NCBI RefSeq assembly: GCF_004010195.1
Contig: NC_057710.1
Location: forward strand, 74,126,257-74,190,256
Direction of reading: 5' to 3'
DNA: 64,000 nt
DNA from: Chiloscyllium plagiosum
Taxonomy: Eukaryota
Shown: piece by piece, positions 10,031 to 35,791 of the stretch
How the letters are laid out: every line of letters starts with the position of its first letter
Numbering within the stretch: position 1 is the stretch's first letter
The notes under the pieces: generated by a model
What the model was told of the DNA's origin: nothing
The model's database searches: none
What the model saw: only the letters and a program-made list of their open reading frames with translations
Program-made: the position numbers and the translations under genes

Positions 10031-10096
10031 GAAGGGCTTATGCCGAAACATCAAATCTCCTGCTCCTTGGATGCTGCCTGACCTGCTGTGCTTTTC
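10031..10096 (+). mobile_element. Truncated Penelope pLTR fragment
   Basis: gaagggcttatgccgaaacatc..ctcctgctccttggatgctgcctgacctgctgtgctttt; lacks the CTGA start. Confidence 0.7.
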
Positions 10097-10227
10097 TAGC
10101 GTCACACTCTTCAACTGCTTTGCTTGAGGCTGAGTAGTGTAACCAATCGAATTACATCTGGAACTCAGCATCTTGCCTTTAAATAAGAAAAAGTTAGGAT
10201 CTAGGTGATCTTCTTCATATAGTTGAA

Positions 10228-10687
10228 GGCCACCCCCTCATTCCTGAAGAAGAGCGTATGCTTGAAACATCAATTCTCCTGCTCCTCCAATGCTGCTTGA
10301 CCAGCTGTGCTTTTCCAGCACCACACTCTTCAACTCTGATCTCCAGCATCTGCAGTCCTCACTTTCTCCCAGTTGATTGTAACCTTAATGTGAAGCGTCT
10401 TCCAAGGATGCCTACCTTGAAGATGGTCTCCTTCCTCTACAAGGATCTCAGTAAGTCTCTCTCTCTCTCTCTCTCTCACTGCACCATTCCCAGCTACCTT
10501 CCCCCCAGCCCCACTCCCCTCCCATTTATCTCTCAGCCTCCATTGGCCACCCCCTCATTCCTGATGAAAATCTTATGCTCGAAATGTCAATTTTCCTGCT
10601 CCTTGGATGCTGCCTGACTGGCCATGCTTTTCCAGCGCCACACTCTTCGACTCTGATCTCCAGCAACTGCAGCGCTCACTTTCTCCC
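10228..10687 (+). mobile_element. Miniature Penelope-derived element with two ~143-bp direct repeats, each with a decayed hammerhead core
   Basis: 10228-10370 resembles 10545-10687; CTGAAGA at 10244 and CTGATGA at 10561; flanks atatagttgaagg / atatttgaagg. Confidence 0.75.
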
Positions 10688-10739
10688 ATATTTGAAGGGA
10701 GTTTGTTCTGGTCCTTAACAACCACTATTTAAATAATAG

Positions 10740-11280
10740 TCTGCCATTCTGTTTTTCCTAACTTCACACTTAGCCATGTTGTACTGCAGCGAAAGTGAGT
10801 TCTGCAGATGCTGGAGATTAGAACCAATTAGAGATTATACTGCATGCCATATATTTCCCATTTGATCACCTTGTCTAAAGTTCCTTGAAGTCTCTTTACA
10901 TTTTCCTTGCCACTCATAATTGTTCCTAGTTTTGTGGCATCAGCACTGTTAAAAATTCTACATTTGGCTCCCTCGTTGATACCTATTCTGAATAGCTGGG
11001 CCCAAGTTGTGATCTTGGTAATAGCACACTAGTCCCTGCCTTCCATTCCAAAAAAAATCTACCCACCAATTCATATTCTTTGTTCCCTCTCTGATAACTA
11101 GTACTCAGCCCGTGCCAGGATATTATCACCATCCCACCTATTTTATTTTGTATACTAACTTCTCAGATAGGACATTATCAAATGTTTTCTGAAAGTCCAA
11201 ATACAACACATCCACTGGCTGTCCCTTATCTACATTACACGTTCCATTCTCAAAAAAATTTCTCAAAGGTTTGTCAATTT
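10740..11280 (-). mobile_element. Decayed CR1 RT fragment
   Basis: Reverse complement contains DVLYLDFQKTFDNV-like and F.DATKLG-like segments. Confidence 0.6.
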
Positions 11281-13289
11281 AAGATGAGTGGGAGCTGAGT
11301 GAGATGGGAATGAGATATAAAGAACTTTGTTGGGAGTGGATGGGCTGCATTCGAATCACAGGGATTTGAACTAAAATGTGTGGCCCCACAGAAATACAGG
11401 TAATTTCAATTGATTCAGGATTCTTGTTCTCTTTATTTCCTTGCTTTTGCTTTCTAAATTAGAACATTTATTTAAACTAAGTGACAGGAAATTGCGTTTT
11501 TTAATTCATCCATTGAACATGGGTATCAGTGGCTGGGTCAACATTCATTACTCATTCCTAATTGCCTTGGAGAAGGCAATACTGAGCTGTTGTTCTTGAA
11601 TTGTTGCAGTGCTTAGAGTGTCGGAACACCTACAATACTGTTAGCAAAAAAAGTATGTGAATTGTTAATTAGAGTATAAACTCAGAACAGCAGTTCAGTT
11701 GACTAGAAACTTCCACAGAATGGAAGATAATTTCACAAGTGTGGGAATTTTGAGAGTTGAAAGCAAAAGGTACCACTTATATATATGAAAGAATGGTAAA
11801 GAAATAGGGTTAAACTAAGATTATGAGCTAAGTTACAGAAAATTACTAAAACAAAGAACAATATCTAATAAATTAAAGAATATTGTTACCAAAATTAAAA
11901 AGAGTAAATGAACAATTGAATGATATTTTAAAATTTAAAACCTAATTTAATATTATAGACATGGCGGGTGATATGTTGCCGCTATAGCAAGTGACGAAAT
12001 AAGTAAGATCCACAGCAACTAAATTTATAGTAATTGACTGCAGCTTGACATACTTTGGCTCAGAGTTGATTTTTCTCATCTCTAATTCCAGGGACAGCAA
12101 AACCACCCAAACTCTTCACTGGCTGAGATTACTTAGATCACACGTAAATTCTGGGATTTTCTGCTTTAGATATTTTGGCATGTTACTTGATGTGGGCCTT
12201 TACTATTTGGCTACAGAGGAGTATTTTTGAATATTTTGAACAAATTATGATTAAACTAAATTTATGACAGATTTGTTATAATAAGTGGGTTATATTCATA
12301 GTAGATGAGTCTCCAGAGATCAGGGTGGCATTGTACCATAGATTTACCAATTTTCATTTTCTCCATCCAATGTGTACCACTGAACTGTGCAAAAGATTTC
12401 GTGGGCTGAATTTTGCCAGAAATTTGCTCAGGGTCAATATTGGTGTGTTTCATGGAAGATTTTTCTCTGTGGCCATTAACGAGATTTCTCATGCAATCTT
12501 GCAAAACTCAGTTTGTTACATTTACACTATCCCCTATGGCACCCTGTTCATTATATCCTCTCTCTCGCCACAAGTGAAATGACTCACCACTGCCTGGATT
12601 TCCTGGCACCGGTGCCATATTTAAACCACAGATGTACATCAGGTGAAGAGCTGTCAGAACACTGAACAGGATCATTGAAAAATTCTGCAGAGCATGGCTT
12701 CCAAGGTGCAATGGAGGTTTAAATAGATACTTGATATCTGTCTTTACCCCAGAATACCTTGTTCCACAACTCTTAATGCAATGTGCAGTTGACTGTAAAA
12801 TTCTAAGTACCAAAGCAGATATGGATATAATGTTGGGAAAAAAAATGTTCAGAACTCCTCAATGTCTGAATAGCATTTATCTAAGCATGATCCAAATCAA
12901 TGAGTGTGTGCTCAGTGAGCCACATGCTCTTATATTTAACATTTGACCAGGTTAAGGTTGTTCCAATGGTCTAAGTACAAGTTAAAGTGTCCGTATTTCA
13001 GAAGGGCAGCAGAGGTCAAAACTTGGGATGGGAATGTGGCTCACAATGTGTCCCACTTGCAGCAAAGAGCTAGAGTACATTAGATGTTTTACCCTTTCCA
13101 TCACAAGCCATCGAACTGTTGACTAACATATCAGCTCTCGCAATGAGTTTGTATTTACTGCAAGTTTTCAAAACGAAGCCAGCCGAGTTTCTGACTTTGG
13201 CTGATAACACAGCACACTAACGGAGTCCCTTAAAAAGGGACTTACCTCGGCACTTAGGCCTCCATTTTTACAGAGTGTCGAGGAGAGAG

Positions 13290-16200
13290 GACAGAGAGAA
13301 ACAAGGGCTACCGGAAAGGGAGAGCGTGAGAACCGTTTTTAAAGGAACAGCTGAGGGAGAAGCCACAGGGCTGACGGCTATGTATTTGGGCAGCAGCTGA
13401 ATCCCGAGATACTAGACGTGTAGTGTCTCCCACCCACCATCTTCCTCTAACAAAAACAAAATGACTATTGTGTGTAGCTAAGGTAAGGCATTTCAGTTGG
13501 TATTTCTTGTGTATCTTGTGATTGATTAAAAGTTGGTTAATTGAATAAGACCATGGAGAAGTACTAGAAATTATTTGACTCATAAATTTGTATAAATTGG
13601 TTAATTAAATTGAGATGGCTGGTCAGGTGATGTGCTGTAGCTGTATGATGTGGGAGCTGGCTGATCCCATTGTGAACGGCAGTGACCAAATCTGCAGCAA
13701 GTGTTGGTTGCTGGAAGAACTCCAGATCAGAGTTGATGATCTGGAATCTGAGCTTCAAACACTGCGGCACATCCGGGAGGGGGAGAGTTACCTGGATGCT
13801 TTGTTTCAGGAGGCAGTCACACCTGGCAGATTAAGTAATTCAAATTCAGTTAGTGATCAGGGACAACAGAGTGTGACTGTAAATGAGGCAGGTAGGAGGC
13901 TTCTGAGTTCAGGAGTGGAGGAGCCTCAGCCCTCGACCTTGTCCGAAAGGTATGAGATTTTTGCTCCCTGTATGGATGAGTTAAAGGGCTGTGGACAGGA
14001 TGACCACAGCACCATGGTGCAGAAGGCTATTCAAGAAGGGGTAGCAAAAATACAAGTAGTTGTTATAGGGGATTCTATAATAAGGGGGACAGATAGTATC
14101 TTTTGTGAGCTGGATCGGGGGTCCCTCATGATGTGTTGCGTGCCCCGTGCCAGGGTGCAGGATATCTCCAACCGGCTTGAAAGGATACTGGAGCAGGAGG
14201 GAGAAGATCCCGTTGTTGTGATCCACGTTGGCACTAACAACATAGGCAAGGCTGGGAAGGAGGATCTGTTTGGGGAGTATCATGCACTAAGAAGGAAATT
14301 GAAGAACAGGTCCTTGAGGGTCATAATTTCTGGATTACTGCCCGAGCCACGTGCTAATTGGTATAGGGATAAGAAAATTACAGGAGTGAACACGTGAATT
14401 GGAGATTGGTGTGGGAAAGAGGGATTCCATTTCATGGGACATTGGCATCAGTTTAGGAACCGGGGGATCTGTACCATTGGGGTGGTCTCCACCTGAACCA
14501 ATCTGGAACCATTGTTCGAGTAAAAAGGATAAATAGAGTTTTAACTAGGACTTTAAACATGTAAGTCGGGGGCAAGGGAAAAGGAAAGCGACAGGGAGTA
14601 TGGAGTCAAGTAGAAAAATAAGCAACAGGTTAGCATGTGTGCAGAGTTTAAGTTCAAGGCAGGGTAGGAATGAAGCAAAAAGGAAGGATAACTTAGGACA
14701 TATTACTAGAGGTGTTAGAAATCATGAGGATAACAAAATTAGTATTAAGTTGCTTTACCTGAATGCTCATAGTATTTGTAACAAAGTAGATGAATTAATG
14801 GCACAAATCATCATGAATGATTATGATGTGGTAGGCAGGGGGTTGAGGACCGGCAATTAAACATTCAAGGATTTACAACTTATCGGAAAGACAGGGAGGT
14901 GGGCAGAGGGGGTGGGTTTGCCTTGTTAGTTAAGAATGAAATTAAATCTATGGCATTAAATTTCCTGGCCCCAATGGGCTACATCCTAGAGTTCTGAGGG
15001 AGGTGGCTGAGAAAATAGTGGAGACATTGGTTGTGATCTTTCAAAAGTCACTGGAGTCAGGGAAAGTCCCATTTGATTGGAAAATTGCTGTTGTATCCCT
15101 CTTGTTCAAGAAAGGATGAAGACAAAAGATGGAAAATTATAGGCTGATGAGCCTAACCTCGGCTGTAGGTAAAATTCTAGAATCTAACGTTAAGGATGAG
15201 ATTTCTAAATTCTTGGAAGTGCAGGGTTGGATTAGAACAAGTCAGCATGGATTTAGTAAGGGGAGGTCATGCCTGACAAACCCGTTAGAACTCTTTGAAG
15301 ATGTAAGAAGTAGGTTAGACCAGGGAAACCCAATGGATGTTATCTACCTAGACTTCCAAAAGCCCTTTGATATGGTGCCTCATGGGAGGTTGCTGAGTAA
15401 GGTGAAGGCCCATGGTGTTCGAGGTGAGATACTGGTATGGATTGAGGATTGGCTGTTTGACAGAATGCAGAGAGTTGCGATAAAAGGTTCTTTTATGGAA
15501 TGGCAGCCGGTGACAAGCGGTGTCCCGCAGGGTTCAGTGTTGGGGCCGCAGCTGTTCACGTTATATATTAATGATCTATATGAAGGGACTGGGGGCATTC
15601 TGGAGAAGTTTGCCGATTATATGAAGTTAGGTGGATAGGCAGGTAGTACGGAGGAGGTGGGGAGGCTGCAGAAAGATTTAGACAGTTTAGGAGAATGGTC
15701 CAGGAAATGGCTGATGTAATTCCATGTGAGCAAATGTGAGGTCTTGCACTTTGGAAAAAAGAATACAAGCATGGTCTATTTACTAAACGATGAGAAAATT
15801 CATAAAGACAAAGGGATCTGGGAGTGCTAATTCAGGATTCTCTAAAGGTTGACTTGCAGGTTGAGTCCGTGATTAAAAAAGCAAATGTAATGTTGTCATT
15901 TATCTCAAGAGGGTTGGAATATAAAAGCAGCGATGTGTTTCTGAGACTTTTTAAAGCTCTGGTTAGGCCCCATTTGGAATACTGTGTCCAGTTTTGGACT
16001 CTGCCCCTCAGGAAGGACATACTGGCACTGGAACATGTCCAGTGGAGATTCACATGGATGATCCCTGGATTGGGAGGCCTAACATACGATGAACGGCTGA
16101 GAATCTTGGGATTGTATTCATTAGAGTTTAGAAGGTTGAGGGGAGATCTAATAGAAACTTACAAGATAATGCATGGCTTGGAAAGGGTGGACACTGAGAA

Positions 16201-16527
16201 ATTGTTTCTGTTCGGTGGGGAACTAGGACCCGTGGGCACAGCCTTAGAATTAGAGAGGGTCAATTTAGAACGGAAATGAGGAGACATTTCTTCAGCCAGA
16301 GAGTGGTGGCCCTGTGGAATTCATTGCCGCAGAGCACAGTGGAGGCTGGTACGTTAAATGTCTTCAAGGCAGAGATTGATAAATTCTTGATCTTGCAAGG
16401 AATTAAAGGCTACGGGGAGAATGCAGGTAAGTGGAGTTGAAATGGCCACCAGTCATGATTAAATGGCAGAGTGGACTCGATGGGCCGAGTGGCCTTACTT
16501 CCACTCTTTTGTCTTTTGGTCTTATGG
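13290..16527 (+). mobile_element. Near full-length CR1 LINE with internal ORF2 deletion
   Basis: 5' UTR, ORF1, start of endonuclease (LYLNAHSICNK..YDVVG), jump at about 14960 to PGP.GLHPRVL, RT (NYR..SLTS, DFQK.FD.VPH, GVPQGSVLGP.LF, FAD), C-terminus and tail; 5' boundary approximate. Confidence 0.92.
13615..14397 (+). pseudogene. CR1 ORF1 (zinc finger, coiled coil, SGNH esterase), prematurely terminated
   Basis: CCSC..CSKC; LEELQIRVDDLESELQTL; VIGDSIIRG; VIHVGTNN; the reading continues past the stop as WCGKEGFHF.GHW and GLHLN. Confidence 0.85.
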
Positions 16528-17054
16528 ATATGTGCTGTAAGTCACTCTGAATTCCTGGACCACATTTAATCTGTATTGGTGGTCAGAGAAACATTTCCCA
16601 GATTTTTTTTCCTTTTGAATTCATAGAGAATTTTTTTTTGCCTTTTGCAGGTCATTACATAGTTTCCAATGGGTAGAGAAATCACTGGAGATAACTGCAC
16701 TCTCCATGTTCATTCTGACTTCATGACTCAGTCTCTATTGACTTTTTGCTCTCTTCTTATTGTCATTTTCATGGACACAGAAGGTAAAGTTCCTGTCTTA
16801 CTGACTTACTTAACTTGTTGAGGAAGTGCCAAGCAAAGTGAACTGAGCGAAGTCTTATCATTTGGTGTACCGAGATTGCTAAAACCCTTTGTATAAACTG
16901 TTCCATGAAAAGCAATGCAACAAACTCAAAGCTGTGGCAATTCAGGGACCAAATAGGAAAATGACTGAAAGGTATATAACAATGTGTACATCTTAGTTGG
17001 AGTTATGTCAAATCCCATGGAGCTCATTTCTGGAATTACCTATTAGTTCAAGGT

Positions 17055-17215
17055 TTGCAACAGGAAGCAGCAGGAACAAAACCAAATAAATTCTAGAAGA
17101 CAGTACAGCAGCCATTCACAAGAGGCACCAAAGCACTGATGATATCACCTAGAAAGGGGATGAAACATCTGCAAATCAACTTCCCAGCTTAGCAACATAC
17201 CCATAACCATGATCA
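17055..17215 (+). mobile_element. Penelope-like 3' end containing a hammerhead-like motif
   Basis: gca-CTGATGA(17136)-t-atcacct-agaa-aggggat-GAAA-CATC-tgc. Confidence 0.6.
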
Positions 17216-17489
17216 CCTCTTGGCTCTTGTTTAAATGAGCGATCTGGATTCATAATTTGCAGATAATATCAAACGTAAACTTCCTGAATGGTATTGAAAT
17301 GGCTAAGGACAAAGAAGAGAGAGATTTGGTTTCTTAATGGAATCATAGTTGAACATGTCCGATGGGTGTAATCAGCTAGCATTGCCAATAGAATGTTGAC
17401 CAAGATGGGAAAGCAGTAGAATTATATTTGAGTATTGTGTGGAATATATAGGTTAAATCAATATATCCTAGAAAATCATGAAACTGCTC

Positions 17490-17647
17490 TCTCATTAGAG
17501 AGTTGATTGGTGGCAGTTTAACCTCAGGGTGACCATGCTTCAGGCAGAGAGCACAGTTGAGAAAGTGGGAACCTCATGATAACCTCATGCTGTTGGCATC
17601 ACTTGCACTGCAAAATACCTGTCCAGCCAACTAAGCTAACCAGTCCC
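17490..17647 (-). mobile_element. tRNA-derived SINE remnant
   Basis: Reverse complement begins gggactggttagcttagttggctgg..tgatgccaacagcatgaggtt; related fragment at about 47590-47680. Confidence 0.5.
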
Positions 17648-20049
17648 TTCAGTATCGAATCAAGCAAAAGTTATTTTGACATTGAAATATAAGGGACATA
17701 GGTAGTTTGTGTTAGTTTCTGTTCCCCAGCAAATATCAATCCCCCCGAAACTCCTCTCACTTTTTGTCAGCCCCCTAACCCTGAATTAGCTCAATTATGT
17801 ACATTAAAATTAGTCTTTGATGATGTTGCAGGTCCAGCTTTTCTGTGTTGAGACAAGACCCAACTGAGATTTGTGAAGGGATGTGAGAGCCAGTGGACAT
17901 GAGCGGATATTGGCTGGCCTAAAGAGTTGTGGGGGCATTTTAATTTCCATTTCGGTTTGGAATATATTTTTTTCTGTGATGTTCTTTTCCATTCTGCCTA
18001 TACCTGACTGAATCTGGGACCGGTGAATGAGTCTGACGCTAATTCCCCTATACATGCCAAAAAAAAGTAACAACAAAAATTAACCCCATGGTCAAAAAGC
18101 GCGTATTCGCGGTACTTTTAATCATTTCAATGTATTTTTATTGAACTCTGCACGTGAATTTCTTCACTTGCAGGCATTCTCAGGAACGGAAGCCTCTTGC
18201 GTAATTCCGCCTCCACAAGCCTCCAAAGTGGAAGTGTCTGAGTTATTGTGTAGAAATTAGGAACCAAGTGCTGCAAAAAGTTAGTTCAAGAGGGTTGGAA
18301 CATTTCACTTGAATCGTAAAATACCAGTTGTCTTTTCACTGCATGAGAAAATACACCACAGAGACTTTCCACCTAATAGTCTGCCAGATAACTGAGAAAA
18401 TTACTGTAATTTATATAGTGCTGAGCTAAATTCACCACCGTATCTAACAGCTTTGTGCAGTAACTATGAGTGATTGAAATTTCAAACAGTAACATTTGTC
18501 CAACTTTCAGTGTCCACAGAAAAAAGAAAGATGAGCCAGCGCAGTCTTCCACTCCCTGGAAGTGGTGGGGAAAGTAGCAGGAATAATCAAATGGGTTAAT
18601 GCCTTTTTACTCCCAAACAAGTTTTAGGTAGCAGGTTTGGAAAGCTCATAGTCAATTTGCCAGATCCGCAATCAGCTGATAATTTGCCCAACCTAGGGCT
18701 GATTGGTGCAAGAAATGGGGGCCTTTGGGATAGAAACAGAAAGCCACTAGCTGCTATTCCTACTGACACCCCTTGCCTTGCTGATGGCTCTTTCCCATGG
18801 GAGATCTCCCATCACTGCAACCTGCCCCCTCCCCATCACCACCAAAAAGCAATTTACCTTCATGCTGTTCCCAGTCTTCAGTGCTGGTCTGCAGCCAGAT
18901 GGAATCTGGGCCTGCAAAGCAGTAGCTGCTCCTCACTGACTGTTAGCTTCCACTTAACCGGCAGTTTCAAGCAGTGTGGGGCATCACTATCCCAGCAAGT
19001 CAATGACCAATAAGCAGTGTCGGGTGGTCACTGAAGTGCCAGCTTAGTGCTTGAACCATTGGGCGTTCTTGTTGATGGTAGTGAGGAAGTCTTAGTCTTA
19101 ATGACACCCACCTCCTCACTTTAATTGAAACAGAGAAAAATCCTGCCTTAGAAAACAGAACCATGAAGGTTTTCCTAATTTCTTGGAAAGCTTTTTGGGG
19201 TAAATTTAATGACTCAACCCCACAGGAGCAGCTGGGAGGTGTGGGCATGCAACATATAAAAGATTGGGAAGCCTTGGTGTGTAAAGACAAAGCCTTCTTA
19301 ACTCTCTGTTTCGAGAAAAGCCTTTGCAGTGGAAGGTTCTTAAATGCAAGGCTCAGGAGTGGGAGAAAAGACACAATGCTAGTCACCATGTCCAATGACT
19401 TCGGTGGGGGCCTGGGTTTGGGCAGCACCACCCTCAGTGACCAATCAGAGCAAAGTTTTCCAATATGTGTGAGAGACGGTATCTGCAAGTAGCTGCTGCT
19501 CCAATCAGAGATTCTGACTCTGTTAAGTTCCTCCAATCACAGATGCTTCTCTCCTACATTCGCCACTGATAGGCTGATCAGTGACTTTGTCAGCATCATA
19601 CACATTCAGCAATATTCTGTGAATGGAGGAACAGCTTGAAAGGTAATCCCTGTGCCAGGGTCTGGGCCACAGGGGTGGCCTCTGGTTTGCTATTGGCTCA
19701 ATCTATTTAATGGTCTCTCAAAACAGAACACAGTCATCTCAGGGATCAATTTAGTGAACTTTAATTGCACTCTCTATTGCTTCCTGGACAGTATGGACTC
19801 TTATTACAAAGATAACTGCAGCATCTCAACAAGCCTTCTTCAACATTATCTCCCAAACAGGTGACCTTATCACCAAGAAGGAATTTAGCACATGAGAATA
19901 CCACAATTGTATGCTACCTTCCATTTTATACAGACTTGGATACATTTTTTTTCCTTTACCATTGCTGGGTCAAATCTGGGAGCTCCTGTGAAAGTTTCTT
20001 CATCTGTAGTGACTGAAGAACACAGCCTAAGATCACCTTTCCAAGAGTA

Positions 20050-20269
20050 AAATATCACACAACACCAGATTATAGTCCAACAGGTTTAATTGGAAGCAAC
20101 TAGCTTTCGGAGCGACACTCCTTCATCAGGTGGTTGTGATGAATCACCTGATAAAGGACCGACACTCCGAAAGCTAGTGTGTTTCCAATTAAACCTGTTG
20201 GACTATAATCTGGTGTTGTGTGATTTTTAACTTTGTACACCCCAGTCCAACACTGGCATCTCCGAATCA
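20050..20269. mobile_element. Palindromic Penelope-derived insertion with two opposed hammerhead cores
   Basis: 42-bp perfect inverted repeat 20054-20095 / 20183-20224; minus core CTGATGA-AGGAG-TGTCG-CTCC-GAAA-GCTA; plus core CTGATAA..GAAAGCTA; flanks tttccaagagta / tttctaaaagta. Confidence 0.85.
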
Positions 20270-20499
20270 TTTCTAAAAGTAGTTAGAGATAGAGAATAAA
20301 TGTTGGCTCACATCACACCAATGAATAAATAGTGTGTCAATAATCAACAGTCAAGTATTTGACAAGTATCCCTTATCCTAGAATCTGGCAAAATGATTTT
20401 AGAAGTGTTTTATGAAATGCAAGTCAATAGAGCTTTCTGTTTGTTAGTTCTTGGAAAATATTCACTTTCCTTTAATCTTTCATGTGATGACCAGCAAGG

Positions 20500-20720
20500 T
20501 CAGAATTTTTTGCCCATCCCTAATTGCTGTTCAATTGAGTAGCATGCGAGGTTATTTCAGTAAGAGTCAGTTTTGTTGACGTAGATGTGGATAGACTCAG
20601 ATATAGGCCAGACTGGGTGAATACGCAGATTTCCTTCTCAAAAGGACATTAAAATCTGGATAATTGATAATAGCTATCATGATCACCACCACTGAAACAA
20701 GTTTTATATTCCAGAATCAA
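20500..20720 (-). mobile_element. DeuSINE-like remnant
   Basis: ttgcccatccctaattg..ataggccagactgggtga..agatttccttc..aaggacatta; matches 33165-33520 inverted. Confidence 0.55.
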
Positions 20721-21460
20721 ATTCAACCCCCTTCCCCCCCATAAGTTTTCTTACAACTCTGTAAGTTCTTTTTCTTCAATTACTTGTTCAATTCCATTTT
20801 AAAATTAGTTATGGAATTAGTTTCCACCACTCTGTAAAAACAATTCCCCTCTGGACCTTTTACCAATGATTTTAGATCTTGAGTTTTTGACGCATTTGTC
20901 AGAAGGAGTAAAGTTTCTCTGTTGACTCTATCAAAAAGCAAAACCTTCTGGCTGTGGATAGTGGGGAGGCAAGTTAATTAATCGGGGTGCCCCATTACCT
21001 TCTCAGCTCCACCAAAAGTAAGTTCTGACAAGGATAGCCTATAGTCAATAATCCTGTGCTGTCACCAATTGAAGGCATGGCCACTCAAAGGGCTTAGGTC
21101 TGTGCTTCAGTTATCACAGCTCCAAGCAGCATGTAAAATATTCAGTTACCTGACTGGTAAACCAGTGCAGGCTGACAGTTCCTGAGTGCGGGATTCTTTG
21201 ATCTTCGCTAAATCATGCACAATTGAGGGCACAGACATAAGGTGCTAAGGTTCACATATTAACCACTCTGTTTCCCTCTGTCTGGAGCAGCCAACATTAG
21301 AAAACACACTTGCCCTTCTTCCTTCTCCATTTAAGCACTTTTCTGAAACCTTGGTTTTTTTGCATTCTGACTGTCGTTCCACTAGCAGCCACACTGTAGC
21401 ACTACCAAATGCAAGAACTGCTGGCCTCTGTTTGGCTGGCACTTACTTTCTTGGTTGTCT

Positions 21461-21550
21461 GGCTTGTTGGTCTAGGGGTATGGTTCTCGGTTTGGGTCTT
21501 CTACTGTGGAGTCTTGCCAGAGATCCTGGGTTCAAATCCCGGACGAGCCA
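21461..21550 (+). tRNA. trnP: tRNA-Pro(UGG)-like gene or pseudogene with an 18-nt intron-position insertion (21497-21514)
   Basis: After removing 21497-21514 it matches the canonical vertebrate tRNA-Pro sequence as I recall it at 65 of 72 positions by eye; acceptor GGCTTGT/ACGAGCC and T-arm CTGGG-TTCAAAT-CCCGG pair; anticodon TGG at 21493-21495; anticodon stem has 2 mismatches. Confidence 0.85.
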
Positions 21551-21574
21551 GCGTTTCTTAACTTTACTTGGGTA

Positions 21575-21675
21575 TTCCTGATGAAGGGCTTTTGCCCGAA
21601 ACGTTGATTTTACTGCTCCTTGGATGCTGCCTGAACTGCTGTGCTTTTCCAGCACCACTAATCCAGAATCTGGTA
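21575..21675 (+). ncRNA. Penelope pLTR fragment with intact minimal hammerhead ribozyme core
   Basis: tc-CTGATGA(21578)-A-GGGC-TTTT-GCCC-GAAA-CGTT-ga. Confidence 0.75.
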
Positions 21676-22267: not shown

Positions 22268-23312
22268 GATTCAAGATGGCAGTGGCAGAATAGTAGCAGT
22301 CGGGACACTGAACCCAGAACTTGTCCACTTCAGCTTGCTTTTCTTTTCTTTTTCAATTTCTCTTCTTCTCCTTTTTACTTTTACTTTCTCTTTTCTTTTT
22401 GTTTTATCTTTAAATTCTTTAAAGCCTCAGTTGTAGGAACATCAGTGAGAGTGGGCCGCGCGTGGAATGGCACATGAAGATGGTGGCACAGGCCTGGGGA
22501 GTGGTGAAGCTGAGTGAATGTTGAAGGGGAGGTGTCTGGTGGCAGCAACGCCAGGAGGAGGCAGACACAGCTCCGTCCCAATCTGAGGTCTCCCACTGAG
22601 CAAGGAGCAGGTCCCAGGCTTCATCCGGGGCGAAAGTGAGAACTGTAGATGCTGGAGATCAGAGTCAAGATTAGAGTGGTGCTGGAAAAGCACATCAGGT
22701 CAGGCAGCATCTGAGGAGCAGGAAAATTGACGTTTTGATTTTCCTGCTCCTTGGATGCTGCCTGATCTGCTGTACTTTTCCAGCACCACTCTAATCTTGA
22801 CCCAGGCTTAATCCCCTGGTCCAGACTCACAGAATCATCTGAGGTTCCAGATCCGGGTACCTCAGGGCGGAGGTGGCAATGGCAGCGAGTTTGGCCCCAG
22901 CGCAGAACCCTGGGGCACTGGCGGTGCCTGCATTGGTGAAGTTGGCCTAGTATGAACTCATGGCGGCGGCAGCATTGGTGGAGGCAAGGTGGTGCCAGAG
23001 AGCAGGGAAGTCTTTGCTCTGGCGGCAGTGGTGTGGTGGAGTGTGGTTGCAGCAATGCTGTCGGTTTAGCAGGAGGGAATCGAGACATTGGGGTGGAGGA
23101 GCTGAGCTAGAAGCGGGACTTGTTCTAGAGACCATCTAACTTTCTTAAGGTAAGACTATAAGATGAACTTCATTGTTTTGTTTTTCTGGCTTTACATTCC
23201 ATGGTTTGGTTTATTTTCTGTGTTTTAAGATGGCGACAGAGTGGTGAAACAAAACCAAACATTTCACTCAACTTTTAATAAATACACATGACAATAACTG
23301 AATTAAATCAAA
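22268..23312 (+). mobile_element. Unclassified GC-rich non-autonomous insertion
   Basis: Interrupts the CR1; begins near tcaagatggc; ends ttttaataaatacacatgacaataactgaattaaatcaa (retroposon-like tail). Confidence 0.5.
22627..22800. mobile_element. Palindromic Penelope-derived insertion lacking the hammerhead cores
   Basis: Arms tcaagattagagtggtgctggaaaag.. / ..cttttccagcaccactctaatcttga; flanking duplication cccaggcttcatcc (22613-22626) / cccaggcttaatcc (22801-22814). Confidence 0.85.
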
Positions 23313-27390: not shown

Positions 27391-27504
27391 CTGAAAATGC
27401 CAGTCTATGATCAGCCTTTCCAATCATTTTCACCTTTCATGCATCTACTTACAGGGTTCTTAGTACTCGCTTTGGCACTGCTGATCATAGACTGGCATTT
27501 TCAG
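27391..27504. repeat. 25-bp perfect inverted repeat with 64-nt spacer
   Basis: ctgaaaatgccagtctatgatcagc (27391-27415) / gctgatcatagactggcattttcag (27480-27504). Confidence 0.95.
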
Positions 27505-29404
27505 GTTTCAGGATGAATGCCCATATGAATGAAGTGAACATCCATTTCCCCTCACCCCAAGGGCATTCATGTCAGGGACAGTTTCCTCATTACCATTTAT
27601 TATTGGTCAAACATGGTCTATAGATTAATGTGGATCATCAGCACCAATTGTTCATTGTGATTCATTGCCTGAGGTCCAATCTTCAGACTTGGCAACTGGA
27701 TTCAATGTTTACAGATTTGCAATAAATTTGTTAGCCTGTCTTGTATATAATTCAGTGCTGGAGGACAAGATAAACTCATCTGCGGTATTCTATGAGTAAT
27801 TATATTTTCCCAAGTGCTCTTCATTCTATCACAAATGAAGCTTTTTGTATCAAGAGAGAAAGTAAGGAAGAAAGAAACAGGAAACAAGAGTGAAAGAGAG
27901 AAGGAGAAAAAAGAAAATAAACAAATACATTAGTTTCAACATTCAGAGAAATTAGTCCCTACAGAAAAGGAAGTGGTGCCAAACAAACAAAACAGGAAGT
28001 GAAAAGGTAGCTTTACTCACCAGTTGAATGCTAACCTGATCCTGAATCATTTGAAGGCCCAAGATTCATTACATGCCTCTGTTGAGTAGTTGGCGCCAAA
28101 TTGGAAATGATGTGTTGGTAATGGGAAGGTGGAAAATTGATTGACTCTCTCACTGAGCTGACTGGAAAGCTGGACCTAGGTTTGGGGGCATGGACGATGA
28201 TAGGGTGATCAGGGTTGTTGTTTCAAATGGATAAGTGGTGAATTGGAATAAGTATTGATCCTGACCCCATATACTTCCAGGGAAGTAAATGTCACCCAAC
28301 TAGGAATTTAAAAAATCCAACCTGAATCCTACTTGATTGATGAGCTATTTCAGAACAATTAGTCTCAAGGAAAGCAGCATATGAACTGAGTTATACATTT
28401 GCATTTTAGCAAGAGAATAATATATTGTATGGTATGTATGCTGTAGGGTAGAATTCTTTTCCAGTTATAAAATTGCATTTCATAAATATACTGTGAGTAA
28501 CATGACTGAGTATTATACAACCAAGTAATAATGCAATGCTGTATGTTCCTCTACCCTATATGTAATAATGTCTATTTCTAAAGCTTATCTTAATTCTCTA
28601 CTCACACTGGCTGTTGCATCAATAGCAGTTGAAACAATAACATTTTTGCATGACAGAACTCTGTTCTCTGTCTTTGCACCAAATTTGTCAAATCACACAG
28701 ACTCAGTAATAGCATAATTCTGTCCAAGTAGTGTGCTCTTCTCATTACTAGTAGCCCTAGGCTTTAAATGAGGAATACCTTTTAAACTTCATTTTGGTTT
28801 TACATGTTCTTTATCTTTTTATCATGTCGCAGATTGTTCTCCTCTGACATATGTAATATAGTGTAGTCAAATGCTATGTTTTTGTGAATGAGCCTGTTAT
28901 TGCTTGTGTAAAAGGTGGAGATCACCAAGGTTCCTGAGCCAGATGAATGCTAGAGAGAAAAGCTGCTGAACTATATTCCAGGTTGTAACTGTTGGCTGGA
29001 GGTAAAGCAACAGATTTGGTGCTGCAGTTTCCATATGACCAAGGTCAATGTGATAGAGGTTTTCTCACCTCCTTGTAAGGACCCTATTTAAAAAAATGCA
29101 CGACTGTTGGCATTGAGCTATAGTTCAGGGAGAGCATTGGCCATCTCAGCCAATGTAGAAACATTTGCACAGTCATTTAATGTCCTTAGCTAAATTTAAA
29201 TATGACAACCCTCGTTCCAAAGTAATTATCAACTTCTAAGTCTTTTCTAACATTGTACCATTTGTTTTACTAAATTATATTCAACATATGACAGTTTGAA
29301 GATTAAAAAAATTCTTTCAGTTGTAAATGTAATATTCAGATAGTATTATCTTGATAAAAACTGACTGCTGTTGAATGAACTGTTTTATTAATTTTACTGC
29401 CTTT

Positions 29405-29500
29405 CTCTGAGGAAGGGTGACTCAACCCGAAACATTCTTTGGATTTTTTTCCGCAGATGCTACCAGCCTGCTGAGCTTTTCCAGCAATTTCTATTTTTGC
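29405..29500 (+). mobile_element. Penelope pLTR fragment with hammerhead-like core
   Basis: CTGAGGA(29407)-A-GGGT-gactca-ACCC-GAAA-CATT..agatgctaccagcctgctgagcttttccagc; related pieces at 29586-29700 (-), 54750-54860 (+) and 55533-55630 (+). Confidence 0.65.
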
Positions 29501-30936
29501 CTCCCTCTGATATGTTTATCCATTAAGTATTTACTTTCATAAACAAAATCTGACCTTATCTTGATTTTTGTATTGCTTATGCTTAAATGCAAAATTCTGT
29601 GGATGCTGAAAGTCTGAAATTAAAACAGAAAGTACTGGAGAAACTCAGCAGGTTGGTCAACATCCAGGGAGAGAGAAACAGAGTTAATTTTGACTTTTCC
29701 TCAGGACAGTAAAACCATATTTTACATATTTGGGTTAAACTGTTCTCCTGCGTTATTCTAAAGATGCAATTCATTGAAACCAGTTAGTTCATTCAGTTTC
29801 CAAACAGGAAGAGGCTGAGTTAGCTGCATATTCAGTGACAACAATGAATGAAAAGAATGAATATGTTAAATTGAAACAGATAATGGCTTAGCTGTTGTGA
29901 ATCATAACTACTGGTTAGAAACTATATAGGGCTAATTTTAACCTTGCCTGCCAGACGTCAGTTAGAATGGGCCGTAGAACCTAGCCACATTGATCCAACA
30001 GCTTTCCTGTGGGTTCCAGACTTGGATTGTGCTTTTGAGAAGACAAGAGTTATACCTGCCTGAAGAAACATATTCCTTCTTTAATTTTGCAGATTTGATA
30101 TTTTGTTGATATCACAAAGACTTTACTGCTATTGTAACTGGAGGCTTGTGTGGGAAAGCCGTGAATAGAAAATGGATTAGACATTTGACAACGTGAGAAT
30201 AGATTATTACATGCTGCCACCTACAGTGTAAAACCTGCTTTGTCACTGAGTTAGGGGCCTTTGGTCAATGTTATTTCAAACAAATTATATTAATTCTTAG
30301 AACAACTTTTGAAAATGAACTTATAGCACCTTGGATGCCAATGTAACTTCTTTTGAATCTATACCATGCTATTAAAAAAAAAGCCCCATTCTTCAGCCAA
30401 GAAGCCACGATGGCAATCTATCTCATTCTAGCAAAGGTGTACTTCAGTACACAGCAGCAATCTGTTTGACCATTTTCTTTTTCTTTGGGCTGAATGTGTT
30501 TGGCAATGTGGAGAACTTCACTTTACAGGCTATTAATAAAGGAAGAAAAGGATACTAACATTGACAAAGTGACAGGAAAAAGAAAATCATGGTGAACAGT
30601 TTTTTTTAACTAGAGGAAGGGAGACAGTGAGATTACCCTGGGATCAGTACCTAGACCACTTCTTTTCTGACCCACATTAATAACTGAAACTTGGGTGAAA
30701 ACAGCACCATTTTGAAATTTGCAGAGCACATATTAATTGTAAATTTCGTGAACTGTGAGAAGGATATTGATAGACTTTAAGAGAACACGGACTGATGACA
30801 TGGAACACCAAAATGGGCAACCAATCATGTACTAATGCCTTGACTATAATTGAGGCCTTTTGTGAACTTGGTGAACACATCAGCGAGTACAACAACAAAC
30901 TCAGTCCTGAAACTATGGGGTCAAGAACCATAAAAT

Positions 30937-31026
30937 CATTGCAGGTCCCTGTGGAGTTCTCCTGATGACCAGGGATCCCATTGCAGTTCCCTGTGGAGTT
31001 CTCCTGATGACCAGGGATCCCATTGC
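30937..31026. repeat. 42-bp tandem duplication inside the Gypsy integrase remnant
   Basis: cattgcag[g/t]tccctgtggagttctcctgatgaccagggatcc twice (30937-30978, 30979-31020), 1 mismatch. Confidence 0.95.
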
Positions 31027-31253
31027 TGGAGTGAGATCGCTGCCCTGCCTTGGTCAAAGTTGGCACTTCACAATTTTGACAGTTGAGACAGTAATCTTGG
31101 TCTCTGGTCAGGCAGTCTTCTTTTCTTTGGCTTGATAGCCCACTCGATTATGAACCGTTACCAACACGTAGTTCCTGATATCATCAGGAAGGATGAGTTG
31201 CTTCACCTTTCTCTCCATATCATGCATCAGTTAAAAGGAGATTTAATCTTAGT

Positions 31254-31570
31254 GGCCAGCACGGTGGCACAGTGGTTAGCACTGCTGCCTCACAGCGCCA
31301 GAGACCCGGGTTCAATTCCCGCCTCAGGCGACTGACTGTGTGGAGTTTGCACATTCTCCCTGTGTCTGCGTAGGTTTCCTCCGGGTGCTCTGGTTTCCTC
31401 CCACTGTCCAAAGATGTGCAGGTCAGGTGAATTGGCCATGCTAAATTGCCTGTAGTGTTAGGTAAAAGGGGTAAATGTAGGGGAATGGGTGGGTTGCGCT
31501 TCGGCGGGTCGGTGTGGACTTGTTGGGCCGAAAGGCCTGTTTCCACACTGTAAGTAATCTAATCTAATCT
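31254..31570 (+). mobile_element. HE1-type V-SINE (tRNA head, V domain, CR1-like tail)
   Basis: ggtggcacagtggttagc (A box), gggttcaattccc (B box), tgtgtggagtttgcacattctccc..ggtttcctccc (V domain), ttgggccgaaaggcctgtttcc plus (TAATC)n tail. Confidence 0.9.
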
Positions 31571-32299
31571 TCTTCCCTGATCTACTTTCAATATCTCACC
31601 AGCTTCCATACCTGTTTGGATTCCCTCTTCAGTCCACATTGGTTGGTAGGTCTACTGATGTCCACATCAATCAATTGAACCTGTCAAAAGCCATTTTTTA
31701 AAGCTATATAGCAAAGGTGAAATCACACTTGGTTCCACCTACCTGGTGGAATATGAATGTCATAGGGAAATGGGGTCAGAATGTTTCTGTTGACTTGGTG
31801 CATGAGTGTGCTATCACCATAATAGCCCCCTGTAGCCAGAGAAGGGGGTTCTCTCCCATAATCAGTCTTCCAACTAGGAGCATCAGTAGTTGCAAAACAT
31901 TGATGTGAATCGGACCTGGAATTGCTGATTGGGTGTGTGTTATTCCCAGCTTGATGGCCATTTGAAAGTAGCAGAGTGGGTTGTTGTCTGTGAATACTTC
32001 AGTCTCTGCACTGATCATAATGTGTTTGGATTTCTGGCATTTAGGCCACATTGAAGCTAGCAGTTTGTGTTTCATCCTGGAATAATTCTCTATATTTCTT
32101 CTCATATGACTTGAGACATCAGCCGGCAGAAACAAGAACCATTCCTATCTGCCTTTGAATCTGTGGCTCTAATCCGAGGCCAAGGAAGATGTCATCAGTT
32201 TCCAGTATGAAATGAAGTAGGATAAGTGGCTAGCCAAAGACAGGTGATAGGAAAACCTTCTGCTTGAGGGTGCAAAGCATGGAAGCTAGGAGTAGAACT

Positions 32300-33160
32300 A
32301 GGCCTTTTGAGTCTTGTCCTCCTTCCAACGTGATCATGATTCACCACAATCTCAATGCCGTACTCCTGCTTTCTCCCTATACTACTTAATACATTTAACC
32401 TCAAGAAATCTATTTTTTTCTTACATATATTCATTGACTTGCCCTCCAAAGCCTTCTGTGGTGGAGAATTCCATAAATTCACTGCTCCTCTGACTGAAGA
32501 AATGTTCCTCAAATCAGTCTGAAATAGTGCACTGCATATCCTCTTCTTGTTAAACTCTATTCCTTTATTTAAGTTGTTGCTATATATTACAAATAACTCG
32601 GGTGCAAGCGCTGATCTCCACTATATACCCCACTTCCCACTTCTCATTGCCTTCCATCCAAAATTGATCATTTTATTCTTACTGTCTGTTTTCTGCCTGC
32701 TAACCAATTCTCAATCCATGCCAGTATATCACCACCAATCCTACTTATTTTGATTTTGTGCACTAACTTCTTATGTGGATTTTCATCAAAAGCTTTCCAA
32801 AAATTCAATACACCTCACCTACTGGTTCTCCCTCATCTAGTCTACTAGTTACATCCAGTAGGCTTGCTCATATTAACCTCATTTTCATAAATCTATACTA
32901 TTTCTGTAATATCATTGGTACCTTTAAATATCATGTTATCACTTTCTTTATAATAGACTCTGGCATTTTCCCTACTACGGCTGTTAGGCTAGTTGGTCTG
33001 TAATTCCTAGTTTTCTCTTCCACTCCTTTTTTAATCAGTAGTGTTAAATACTCACACACCAATTTGTCAGAACTGTTCTGAAATCCAAAGGATTTTGGAA
33101 AATGACAACTAACGTAGCCAATATTTCTGTGGCTGCTTCTTTAGTACACTGAATTGTAGA
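32300..33160 (-). mobile_element. Decayed CR1 (3' end plus RT pieces)
   Basis: AVNLWNS.PQKALE in ORF 32195..32512; NYRPTSLT.VVGK-like segment near 33000. Confidence 0.6.
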
Positions 33161-33164
33161 TTTA

Positions 33165-33520
33165 AGGGAGGGGCAATGGCCTGGTGGTATTATTGCTCCA
33201 CTATTAATCTGGAAATTTAGGTAATGTTCTCTGACTGTGTTTCAAATCCCATCATGGCAGGTGGTAGAATTGCAATTCAATATGTACTTGGAATTAAGAA
33301 TCTGCTGATTACCATGAAACCACTGTTGATCATCAGGGAAACGAAAAATCTGGTTCACTGATGTCCTTTAGGGAAATAAATCTGCTATCCTCATCTGGTC
33401 TGGCCTACATATGACTCCAGATCCACAGCAATGTGGTTGACTGTTGACTACCTTCTGAAATGGCCTAGCAAGCCATTCAGTTGTATCAATCGCTATAAAG
33501 TCTCATATGGACTGCAGCTG
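33165..33520 (+). mobile_element. DeuSINE-like element
   Basis: tRNA-like head (tggcctggtgg..ttcaaatccc) followed by ggttcactgatgtcctttaggga..tggtctggcctacatatgactccag..aatgtggttgact..gaaatggcctagcaagcc. Confidence 0.65.
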
Positions 33521-33667
33521 TTCACGATAGAATAATGAGTGCAAGTCTCAATTATACACATGCAAGCATTCTCATTCTAAATATTACTGCCAGTAATTTC
33601 CTCTGGCATTCTTCTGCTCCATCACAATAACTTGTGCTTACATGTGACATTCATGACTACAGAGTGG

Positions 33668-33868
33668 AGAAAGTGAGGACTGCAGATGCTGGAGATCAGA
33701 GCTGAAAATGTATTGCTGGAAAAGCGCAGCAGGTCAGGCAGCATCCAAGGAGCATAAGAATCGACGTTTCGGGCGTAAGCCCTTCTTCAGGAATGTTTCC
33801 TGAAGAAGGGCTCATGCCCGAAACGTCGATACTCCTGCTCCTTGGATGCTGCCTGACCTGCTGTGCCT
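33668..33868. mobile_element. Palindromic Penelope-derived insertion with two intact divergent hammerhead cores and 18-bp TSD
   Basis: Minus core 33763-33790 and plus core 33800-33827, both CTGAAGA-A-GGGC-4 nt-GCCC-GAAA-CGTC; ttcatgactacagagtgg at 33650-33667 and 33869-33886. Confidence 0.9.
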
Positions 33869-34714
33869 TTCATGACTACAGAGTGGGCAAAGTCAAGAAA
33901 ATTCCCAATGTATGTAAAATTATATTCAGATAATTTGGAATTGTTGGAAGCGAAAACAAATTGATGAATGATCTTGTGCATATTCAGTGGAAATATTCTC
34001 ACAGTTTATTCCATAAAAGTGATGAAAGTTCCACAGGAACTGTGTTTAATCATTCTCTGTGATACACACTTACTTGAAAAGGGGAGAGGAAGCTGGAAGG
34101 ACATTACTCTTGAGGTTGCTATTGATCTGACTGCCAGGAATGATTTGGAAATATCCCAAGATTCTCTAGTGTTCCTCCTCCCTCTTGCTCTCTCTCTTTG
34201 AGCATGTGCTGGCCTCAGCTCACAGCTTCCCAGGATAATAGGACAAAGTTCAGGAGCAGTTCGAACAAAATTTATTGTTACGTATTTACTTGAAACATGT
34301 TCCTGTTGCAAGTGTCTAACCCTTCCCTCCAGCCCCCCCCCCTCACTGCCAACTTCATCATAAAAGTGAACTTTCAAACAGCCTCATACTTACTGCAAAC
34401 CAAAATGTATAGACAAGGCAATCAACACAAGCAGTAATTTTTTTTTAATGATGATGATTTTCCAACAAGTCCCAGGAACAGAACGAAACATTAATATTAT
34501 TAAATAATATTAATCTCAACAACTTATGTATTATCTTTTCAGTTATCAAGATTAATAATCACTATGTTTATCTTCTAAGGAATCTATTCTTGTTCATATA
34601 ATCTGATATTATCATCACTAACAACAGGAATTCTTTGAGAAAGTGCACATCACTGGGATAGAATGACAACTTAAAATCTATGTTCCATTGAAGGATCTCA
34701 ATTCAAGCAATAAT

Positions 34715-35270
34715 AACAAGAATAATTTGCGTTTATGCAGCACCTTTAAATTGCAAAATATTTCAAGATGCTTCTCAAGAGCCACCAACAAATGAAATTT
34801 GACACCAAGCCATTTAAAGAGATGCTAGGATAGGTAGGTGATCAAATATTTGATCAAAGAGTTACTTTTTAACATGTAAAAAGGAGAGAGAGGAAGAAGA
34901 GATGGAAAGGTTTTGTGAAGAAATCTAAAGGAGGCAAAGGAATGAAAAAGGGATTCGGCACCAGATGAGTTGAGAAATGGAAAGAAACAGAGCACTGTGG
35001 TGGGGGTGGACGTTAGTGATGGACAGGTTCAGTGGTTGGAAGCTTGGTTTGGTAGGAAGAGGAAAGATTCCTGGGCAGTTGTGACTGGGACATGAGACAA
35101 TGGTTTTAGTCTTCCTGATATTTATTTGGAGAAAATTTCTGCTTATCCATTACTGGATGTTGCGCAGCAGTCTGACAAATCAGTGATAATAGAGGCCTCC
35201 AGAGAGGGAATGTTGTATTAGAGCAGGATGTGGCCAGCATACATGTGGAACCTGATGATGTTGCCAAATT
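34715..35270 (-). mobile_element. Old LINE (L2-like) remnant
   Basis: ttgcgtttatgcagcaccttt..gacaccaagcc..; same family as 7550-7960. Confidence 0.35.
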
Positions 35271-35274
35271 GCTT

Positions 35275-35400
35275 CATTCCTGATGAAGGGCTTTTGTCCG
35301 AAACATAGATTTTCCTGCTCTCGGATGCTGCCTGACTTGCTGTTCTTTTCCAGCACCACTCTAATCTTGACTCTAATCTCCAACATCTGCAGCACCCGCT
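35275..35400 (+). mobile_element. Penelope pLTR monomer with hammerhead core
   Basis: CTGATGA(35280)-A-GGGC-TTTT-GTCC-GAAA-CATA; tgatgttgcca repeated at 35256-35266 and 35406-35416. Confidence 0.75.
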
Positions 35401-35638
35401 TGCGCTGATGTTGCCAGATATTCCATGTAGATAAGAAATAGAAGGGGGTTATGGATAGACAGTACCTACCAAATGAATTTGTTGAATGTCAAGAGTGGAA
35501 TTGGTGAAACAGTTTACTGGCTTCAGTAATGAGAACCTTACTGGCTTGAATTATCCTGATTGGGTGGATGGCCCAATACTGGAAGGAAATTCATTTTGTG
35601 GGCATGCATCCCAAAGAGCTGTCACCTAGCTGTCTCAA

Positions 35639-35791
35639 GAAGGTAAATACAATGACTGCAGATGCTGGAAACCAGATTCTGGATTAGTGGTGCTGGAAGA
35701 GCACAGCAGTTCAGGCAGCATCCAAGGAGCTTCGAAAAGCTCCTTGGATGCTGCCTGAACTGCTGTGCTCTTCCAGCACCACTAATCCAGA
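35639..35791. mobile_element. Palindromic Penelope-derived insertion: 56-bp perfect hairpin, 15-bp TSD
   Basis: 35677-35732 is the exact reverse complement of 35737-35792 (loop CGAA); acctagctgtctcaa at 35624-35638 and 35792-35806. Confidence 0.92.

Follow-up and report, generated by a model that had tools for sequence, protein, structure and literature searches.

Palindromic inserts in the genome of Chiloscyllium plagiosum are gene-less miniatures of Penelope-like insertions, probably primed from both ends of a staggered cut

Endonuclease-bearing (EN+) Penelope-like elements (PLEs) leave insertions with a layout described for Pen2a_Av and other elements of this kind: a terminal repeat (pLTR) stands head to head with an inverted copy that falls short of it by about 35 nt, a tail of 30–40 bp is present on one side, the target site is duplicated, and a short overlap or palindrome marks the junction (PMC3846280; layout in PMC8557442). 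In vitro, the purified protein of an anole PLE cleaves and extends both strands, starts reverse transcription at two internal sites that bracket the tail, and uses uncut RNA (PMC11167929). Here we analyze a stretch of 64,000 nucleotides of Chiloscyllium plagiosum (positions 74,126,257 to 74,190,256 of contig NC_057710.1, RefSeq assembly GCF_004010195.1; hereafter, the window), which contains four short palindromic inserts that are alike in these respects to the EN+ PLE insertions. The layout of inverted pLTR, tail of 30–40 nt, and target-site duplication (TSD) is known, and the inserts are gene-less miniatures of it, real and common. In our interpretation, they are the smallest insertions left by two PLEs of Neptune type, each likely made anew at insertion by two internally primed complementary DNAs (cDNAs) running off the capped 5′ end of the element RNA.

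A preliminary description of the window had placed the four inverted repeats in at least two unrelated sequence families and had given each a long arm, a shorter inverted arm, and flanking direct duplications of 12–18 bp, all of which held. The arms are 91%, 92%, 98%, and 84–94% complementary; the long arms end at +121 to +125 and the short arms at +71 to +93 (positions are numbered from C3 of the hammerhead box CUGANGA, the predicted cut falling after +27 in family A and after +28 in family B); two of the duplications are exact, one carries 1 mismatch, and one, at the 20050 insert, has decayed and lies below the TSD threshold used in the counts below; and self-BLAST assigned three inserts to family A and one (20050) to family B (Table 1). 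The claim that the inserts fold back at or beside a hammerhead stood for two of them, 33668 (fold-back at -5/-3) and 20050 (-6/about -10), both directly upstream of the core; in 22627 (about +20/+27) and 35639 (about +31/+37), the core is mostly or wholly gone. The two arms of 33668 are unlike at loop II, and in the core on the + strand of the 20050 insert (right arm, near 20148) G8 is changed to A.

Such inserts are frequent in the source assembly, which is 3.56 Gb in size. A search of the assembly with the A and B arms returned 2450 (A) and 2678 (B) first-look candidates, 40 of which were scored per family. A first unselected sample of 80 fixed-place tiles of 10 kb (800 kb, 35 kb of it N), taken together with the window, yielded 181 arms and 52 head-to-head pairs (4 of them in the window), and a held-out sample of 400 kb yielded 96 arms and 22 pairs, the arms of two related families, C and E, being excluded before counting. 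Arms were mapped by BLAST against 12 real copies, several of them taken from the same first sample, and arms shorter than about 30 nt escape detection. The unselected 800 kb and the held-out 400 kb hold 70 head-to-head pairs in 1.15 Mb of called bases, about 60 per Mb, which would amount to roughly 2 × 10^5 palindromes if the sample holds for the whole assembly. Most pairs are 140–240 bp long (range, 137–928 bp). The tabulation of TSDs proposed in the preliminary description found duplications in most pairs: with a score of at least 9 as the threshold, they were present in 36 of the 52 pairs of the first sample and window, compared with 1 of 508 flank-swapped controls, and in 14 of 22 held-out pairs; their median length in the first set is 15 bp.

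The 3′ ends of the arms fall at two preferred places about 34 nt apart. In the first sample and window, long arms end at +115 to +126 in 50 of 52 pairs and short arms at +81 to +95 in 46 of 52, and the asymmetry between arms is 29–44 nt in 32 of the 36 TSD-bearing pairs. Reverse transcription in vitro starts 85–92 nt beyond the ribozyme cut (PMC11167929), and the distance here is 92–98 nt. Bases that follow the long arm resemble the continuation of the RNA itself (32–34 of 60 at each of four positions in family B; 54 of 74 at the first free position in family A), and priming therefore likely proceeds through 2–5 nt of pairing between target and RNA. A longer inverted insertion (locus L164:3549–6043), with a 15-bp TSD, has a short arm whose end lies about 170 nt upstream of that of the tail, showing that second priming does not always occur at the site near +90.

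The 5′ ends were analyzed as life-table rates per nt at risk over 257 arms, window excluded, of which 35 were censored where they adjoined N or reached a reference start. The rate is highest at -14 to +3 (0.042; 91 ends), hereafter the edge; it is 0.012 at +4 to +21 (41 ends), 0.0066 at +22 to +34, around the predicted cut (19 ends), and 0.0024 at +35 to +55 (12 ends). Upstream, it is 0.0057 at -60 to -15 (17 ends) and 0.0040 at -200 to -61 (20 ends), or 0.0047 when pooled over -200 to -15 (37 ends). The edge exceeds the upstream rate 9.0-fold (p 4e-33) and the rate at the predicted cut about 6-fold (p 6e-18). Since these position windows were set after viewing the first sample, the held-out set, which alone gives an 8.7-fold excess over upstream, is the fair test. 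Single arms without a partner also stop at the edge (9 of 50 at -12 to +2 in the first sample). The fold-back points are non-random, in keeping with the preliminary description; its notion of elements bounded by ribozyme cleavage does not agree with their location, as ends cluster about 30–40 nt upstream of the predicted cut, and the template thus carried an uncut ribozyme.

A Penelope origin of the arms, suggested earlier, could be traced to their parents: families A and B are the pLTRs of PLEs that encode open reading frames (ORFs). Family B repeats lie downstream of ORFs with a reverse transcriptase (RT; Pfam RVT_1, E 2.7e-9 at locus L168 and 7.5e-8 at L157), a CX2-5CxxC linker, and a putative GIY-YIG-like domain; at L157, a family B repeat also lies directly upstream of the ORF, the ATG beginning where the tail ends. 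A family A repeat follows the end of an ORF of the same kind at L164, where RT motifs are seen and that frameshifted piece has no Pfam match. The linker between RT and endonuclease is present at L164 (A) and L160 (B), as are pairs of GIY-YIG-like motifs; the Pfam GIY-YIG profile reached E 0.0016, below the cut-off, on the related L170 and did not match the family B pieces. These motifs suggest that the parents of both families are Neptune-type EN+ PLEs, Neptune being assumed over Nematis from the distribution of the two among vertebrates. The CX2-5CxxC linker marks Neptune or Nematis PLEs (PMC8557442). The arrangement of long and short arm also occurs at L157, L160 (3.4 kb), and L168 (5 kb), so that it spans 137 bp to 5 kb; given ORF-coding parents and the same layout up to 5 kb, the inserts of the window are the short end of a size series of Penelope-like insertions.

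The description of the repeats as carriers of minimal hammerheads was upheld by motif anatomy: core boxes, stem II, palindromic helix III positions, and NUH are present, and cleavage itself is predicted. Predicted cores occupy the two arms of 33668 and, in 20050, the left arm (anatomy as in PMC4209133); stem II forms in 8 of 10 folds, and loop II differs among subfamilies while the stem is kept. The hammerhead search that had been suggested, carried out as an Rfam scan of the window, matched no hammerhead family, and the call accordingly relies on comparison of the motif anatomy with PMC4209133. The 11 matches of that scan comprise 8 microRNA (miRNA) hairpins, 1 transfer RNA (tRNA), and 2 weak small nucleolar RNAs; the miRNA matches were rejected because the hairpins belong to the palindromes themselves. 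On inspection by eye, a type III hammerhead that would cut upstream of CUGA was rejected, there being no GUH/CUH plus hairpin at that place. The hammerhead regions fold no more stably than shuffles (z -1.8 to +0.7, 10 sequences).

Under the mechanism that we favor, the target would be cut with a stagger of about 15 bp and one cDNA would be primed from each cut end. The two cDNAs would start at two internal sites of the element RNA, copy its first 100–130 letters onto both sides of the break, and, on reaching the capped 5′ end a short way upstream of the hammerhead, run off it in a “strong-stop”-like fashion. Microhomology would then serve to join the two cDNA 3′ ends, and some trimming or filler would spread the ends to +20 and beyond. 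Hammerhead cleavage would not be required, and either a full-length RNA or an internally deleted tandem unit could be the source, the two being indistinguishable in the part that is copied. The products, lacking the upstream TATA region and the ORF, would be dead ends.

The edge would be the transcription start, as suggested by promoter-like words around it when read against the TATA and initiator consensus: TATAAA stands at -40, 30 nt upstream of the edge, in 3 of 3 family B references, and an initiator-like motif places its A at -8 in 2 of 3 family B references and at -4 in 7 of 9 family A references. Moreover, G precedes 10 of 11 family B ends at exactly -8, compared with 17 of 56 other family B ends. 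An untemplated extra G is a trace of a copied cap, and the extra G here may be such a copy. Both PMC2377424 and PMC8557442 are consistent with transcription starting within the pLTR, and TATA and initiator words have been noted in a rotifer pLTR (PMC3846280). A splice acceptor at the 5′ edge was considered and rejected, no AG being conserved among subfamilies. At the other end of the repeat, the family A long arm closes with a pyrimidine tract (e.g., at L114 and L173–L191), after which part of the read-on copies have TAG, like a 3′ splice site, and other copies have no AG; Penelope has an intron in the tail-end region (PMC2377424).

A different account of the edge, which we regard as unlikely, holds that it is not an RNA start: RT would stall or detach after unwinding the hammerhead, or palindromic words at -5 to +2 would favor the joining of longer cDNAs. 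Recurrent junctions do sit at palindromic words (three family A pairs at -4/-4, three at -3/-3, and two family B pairs at -5/-5), the 35639 insert folds at another palindromic hexamer, and the 5′ strand of helix I in family A begins where the initiator A lies. However, arms that have no partner to join also stop at the edge, the edge shifts between families as the initiator does (-8 versus -4), G precedes nearly all family B ends at -8, and the region folds no better than shuffles.

Several observations weigh against our interpretation of the edge and of priming. Family A has a weak TATA-like word, at about -36, and its preceding G is weakly enriched (10 of 21 ends at -4 versus 27 of 92 elsewhere); most of the family B G's could alternatively be explained by a C in the partner arm, read on the complementary strand, or by filler, and part of the family B set for this count came from top-hit searches. 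In one RNA run, from an oligo-dT single-cell library, no position had piled-up molecule starts. About a third of the arms at risk at -15 pass the edge (51 of 158 in the first sample), which requires other templates or a jump. Ends at +22 to +34 are 2.7 times as frequent as at +35 to +55 (19 versus 12 ends), and one end lies within about 3 nt of the predicted cut in two of the four inserts of the window; because of these, a minor cleaved template may also contribute. Arm ends derived from BLAST carry an error of a few nt. The likeness of target and RNA at the priming site is unlike the non-homologous site reported in vitro (PMC11167929), and in family B the closest match of an arm is less clearly its partner (median rank, 0.30).

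The way in which the two arms meet bears on the remaining alternatives. Junction geometries number 86 among 91 pairs (52 from the first sample and window, 39 from targeted loci), and the recurring ones use short palindromic words and recur across subfamilies. In the 64 pairs with tails, the short arm reaches at least 10 nt further 5′ in 28, the long arm reaches further in 16, and the two lie within 10 nt of each other in 20. Each arm of the 28 pairs has sequence private to it, which is impossible from one folded cDNA, and both target ends were therefore primed on RNA; together with the median TSD of 15 bp, this supports the priming from both ends of a staggered cut put forward in the preliminary description. 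The arms of a pair differ by 0.057, versus 0.122 between pairs in family A (51 pairs), and by 0.057 versus 0.088 in family B (32 pairs), and they usually belong to the same subfamily; these values suggest that they derive from one RNA or RNAs of one source, or were later converted.

In the scheme of the preliminary description, short non-autonomous RNAs freed by hammerhead cleavage would be the mobile unit and would amplify in the manner of miniature inverted-repeat transposable elements (MITEs). The density of the pairs and their size, mostly 140–240 bp, fit such amplification, as do a slight excess of ends near the cut and a 344-bp tandem derivative in which one junction is common to 9 of 20 fetched loci, showing that non-autonomous masters exist in family A. 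Against this, a cleaved RNA would start at +28/+29, yet most arms hold the entire core upstream of that point; the junctions are copy-specific; the size series reaches 5 kb; and mutation of the hammerhead leaves insertion in vitro normal (PMC11167929). The idea of a distinct non-autonomous family is not supported, the arms being the repeats of ORF-coding elements, and the palindromes depart from the uniform structure and symmetric terminal repeats of MITEs in their asymmetric arms, varied junctions, and lengths of 137–928 bp. They differ from non-LTR retrozymes as well, being head to head rather than tandem and, in 22627 and 35639, missing the core. The MITE-like view of the palindromes is largely refuted, and we rate it as very improbable.

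A non-autonomous derivative of family A does exist; it is the 344-bp tandem unit, not the palindrome. A junction search of the assembly gave 40 spanning places, 20 of which were fetched and 9 of which share the junction of this unit. TSD-like repeats and the same long and short ends are found at 4 of the 9 loci; since N gaps directly adjoin 8 of these 9, the length of the arrays and their near-identity may be products of assembly. Both the promoter region and the after-tail sequence are retained in the unit, which could be a source RNA of the family A stubs. Internally deleted tandem units of 317–344 bp at L179, L182, L184–L190, and window positions 10235–10688 show several junction types, some common to many loci; in the window copy, the order is pLTR, about 110 nt of sequence that normally follows the tail inside the element, a piece of 3′ untranslated region (UTR), and pLTR.

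No more probable is a single cDNA that folds back, primes itself (as proposed in PMC3846280), and is then copied into the mirror arm. Palindromes at the junction, the subfamily and some private changes shared between arms, and the 36 of 64 tailed pairs in which the short arm does not reach at least 10 nt further 5′ are compatible with it, whereas the other 28 pairs, with sequence in each arm that is absent from the other, and the commonness of single arms ending at the short site (about half of 70) are not. Least probable of all are longer inverted insertions with centers later deleted, or assembly artefacts: long palindromes are unstable and many long copies in the assembly have N gaps at their centers, but deletion would not halt at one family-specific base, the arms differ by about 6% with TSDs intact, and raw reads of an independent run, X20 (described below), contain opposite-strand joints at -5 to +4 (B) and -4/-2 (A), which speak against an assembly artefact, although library chimeras could mimic them.

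RNA reads point to a poly(A) site inside the family B repeat. Of an RNA run (X20) whose source is not shown to be this species, about 2% was read against locus L145, which holds an extended B copy and an extended A copy; 4494 reads mapped, mostly 90–99% alike. Loose poly-T ends of 827 and 119 reads fall at +57 and +60, respectively, on the sense strand of B (L145:8118–8121), about 11 nt after ATTAAA, a word of the poly(A) signal consensus, and with a GU-rich tract following; no run of A in the DNA at this place exceeds four, and read depth over the upstream 3′ UTR is strongly one-sided. Comparable poly(A) ends were not found for family A at L145 in this run, and a second run, X21, gave no matching reads. 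The reads may be host transcripts that end in B copies, and every sense copy of family B in a transcript could serve as a poly(A) site. The site at +57 lies upstream of both priming sites (+87 and +121). If the element messenger RNA (mRNA) ends at +57, both priming sites would be present only at its 5′ end, which would explain the dominance of run-off stubs; long copies would then need a jump, read-through RNA, or a circle. We raise, as a tentative and rather doubtful extension, that the pLTR acts as a retroviral U3-R-U5, with start at -8 and poly(A) at +57: every insertion would begin as target-primed strong-stop cDNA, a jump through the -8 to +57 repeat to the mRNA 3′ end would regenerate the pLTR and give long copies, and a failed jump would leave the 200-bp palindrome.

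Other related sequences of the window are included in Table 1. Of the four monomers reported previously, those at 10031, 21575, and 35275 belong to family A, and that at 29405 to a third, more distant family C (self-BLAST, which also places 10239 and 10556 in family A). Family C arms also occur at 54788, 55534, and 4676; 29406–29499 and 29622–29681 pair tail to tail rather than head to head, and head-to-head family C pairs are present elsewhere in the unselected sample. A lone 30-bp family A tail fragment on the - strand at 10791–10822 is a very short insertion. The PLE remnants at 3930, 42235, and 47845, once considered the enzyme partners of the inserts, are all broken, and they are relatives rather than sources. 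None is of family B, that at 3930 showed no link to family A or B, and those at 42235 and 47845 end in a related yet distinct repeat (type E, about 75–80% like family A). Among other features, a tRNA-Pro-like sequence at 21460–21552 (+), 20 bp upstream of the 21575 arm and enlarged by about 20 bases in the anticodon loop (ARAGORN; Rfam, 33.3 bits), is probably a pseudogene or the head of a short interspersed nuclear element (SINE). An unrelated inverted repeat at 27391–27504 (33-nt arms, 48-nt spacer, no TSD found) is a possible MITE, and large direct repeats at 58564–62929 (692 bp at 87% and 1318 bp at 90%), with more copies at 53430 and 57037, are likely another decayed retroelement.

Table 1. 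Features of the window related to Penelope-like elements (window positions; signed numbers are positions in the repeat)
Feature	Position	Strand	Arms and remarks	Direct duplication
Broken GIY-YIG-like remnant, Poseidon-like	3918..4259	+	No Cys-rich linker before endonuclease; Pfam GIY-YIG E 0.011, below cut-off	
Family A single arm, short type	10023..10116	+	-3..+91	No TSD found
Family A tandem pair, period 317 bp	10235..10688	+	Internally deleted unit, not two monomers	
Probable decayed 12-bp TSD of the 20050 insert	20038..20049 (left), 20270-20281 (right)		10/12 bases match	
Family B palindromic insert	20050..20269	+	Short inverted arm 20046-20141 (about -10..+83); long arm 20142-20270 (-6..+121) with tail	Row above
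Predicted minimal hammerhead core, short arm of family B insert	20105..20129	-	Motif match	
Family A3 single arm, short type	21572..21674	+	-6..+96	No clear TSD
Family A palindrome	22627..22800	Long arm on -	Long about +20..+125, short about +27..+87; core mostly gone	14 bp, 1 mismatch, 22613-22626 / 22801-22814
Family C arm with hammerhead-like core	29401..29500	+	More distant relative	
Family A palindrome	33668..33868	Long arm on -	Long -5..+125, short -3..+71; predicted hammerhead core in both arms	18 bp, exact, 33650-33667 / 33869-33886
Family A single long arm	35271..35405	+	Starts near -9	11-bp direct repeat 35256 / 35406
Family A (subfamily A3) palindrome	35639..35791	-	Folds at internal palindromic hexamer, about +31..+37; no hammerhead core	15 bp, exact, 35624-35638 / 35792-35806
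Broken endonuclease remnant with type E terminal repeat	42226..42850	-	Decayed hammerhead	
Broken RT-endonuclease remnant	47845..49260	+	Related Penelope-like family; ends in own repeat (type E); 66% like family A element of L164	

The palindromes constitute a fossil record of both RT start sites, of the stagger of the cut, and, likely, of the first base of the RNA; they speak for twin priming rather than self-priming and lead to a prediction that bears directly on the in vitro system already in use. For annotation, their likeness to MITEs or to miRNA hairpins is relevant, as are the poly(A) sites that transcripts receive from family B repeats. A literature search, which covered few subscription papers (the 2005–2006 PLE reviews, for example, were outside it) and neither Repbase nor Dfam, returned no paper on pLTR palindromes that lack ORFs, on run-off where the RNA starts, or on a poly(A) site within a vertebrate pLTR.

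In retroviruses, minus-strand strong-stop DNA is primed near the RNA 5′ end and runs off to the cap, and in L1 twin priming a second primer from the other target end yields an inversion; here, the primer would be target DNA rather than tRNA, and the two arms overlap in sequence, unlike L1 inversions. The family A units of 317–344 bp resemble non-LTR retrozymes in being pLTR-derived and protein-less with one predicted hammerhead per unit (bioRxiv 10.64898/2026.07.22.740005), whereas the palindromes are inverted rather than tandem and are known here from DNA, their transcription and re-mobilization being conceivable. Metazoan pLTRs with minimal type I hammerheads (PMC4209133) share CUGANGA, the unpaired base, stem II, GAAA, palindromic 15.2–16.2, and NUH with the repeats described here, and likewise occur as many dispersed single copies and close opposite-strand pairs; that work proposes cleavage and circular templates, whereas the ends here lie mostly upstream of the core and not at the cut. 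Poseidon of Anolis carolinensis in vitro (PMC11167929) is alike in the cutting and extension of both strands, two internal RT starts, their distance from the cut, and the uncut template; it differs from the present elements with their Neptune-type linker and the likeness of 2–5 nt between target and RNA at the long-arm end, and run-off products and fold-back position are not treated in the text examined. Compared with the insertions of EN+ PLEs described previously (PMC3846280), most inserts here are ORF-less and 137–250 bp long, their TSDs have a median of 15 bp versus 8–10 bp, and they combine a very high density, about 60 pairs per Mb, with a strongly preferred fold-back place.

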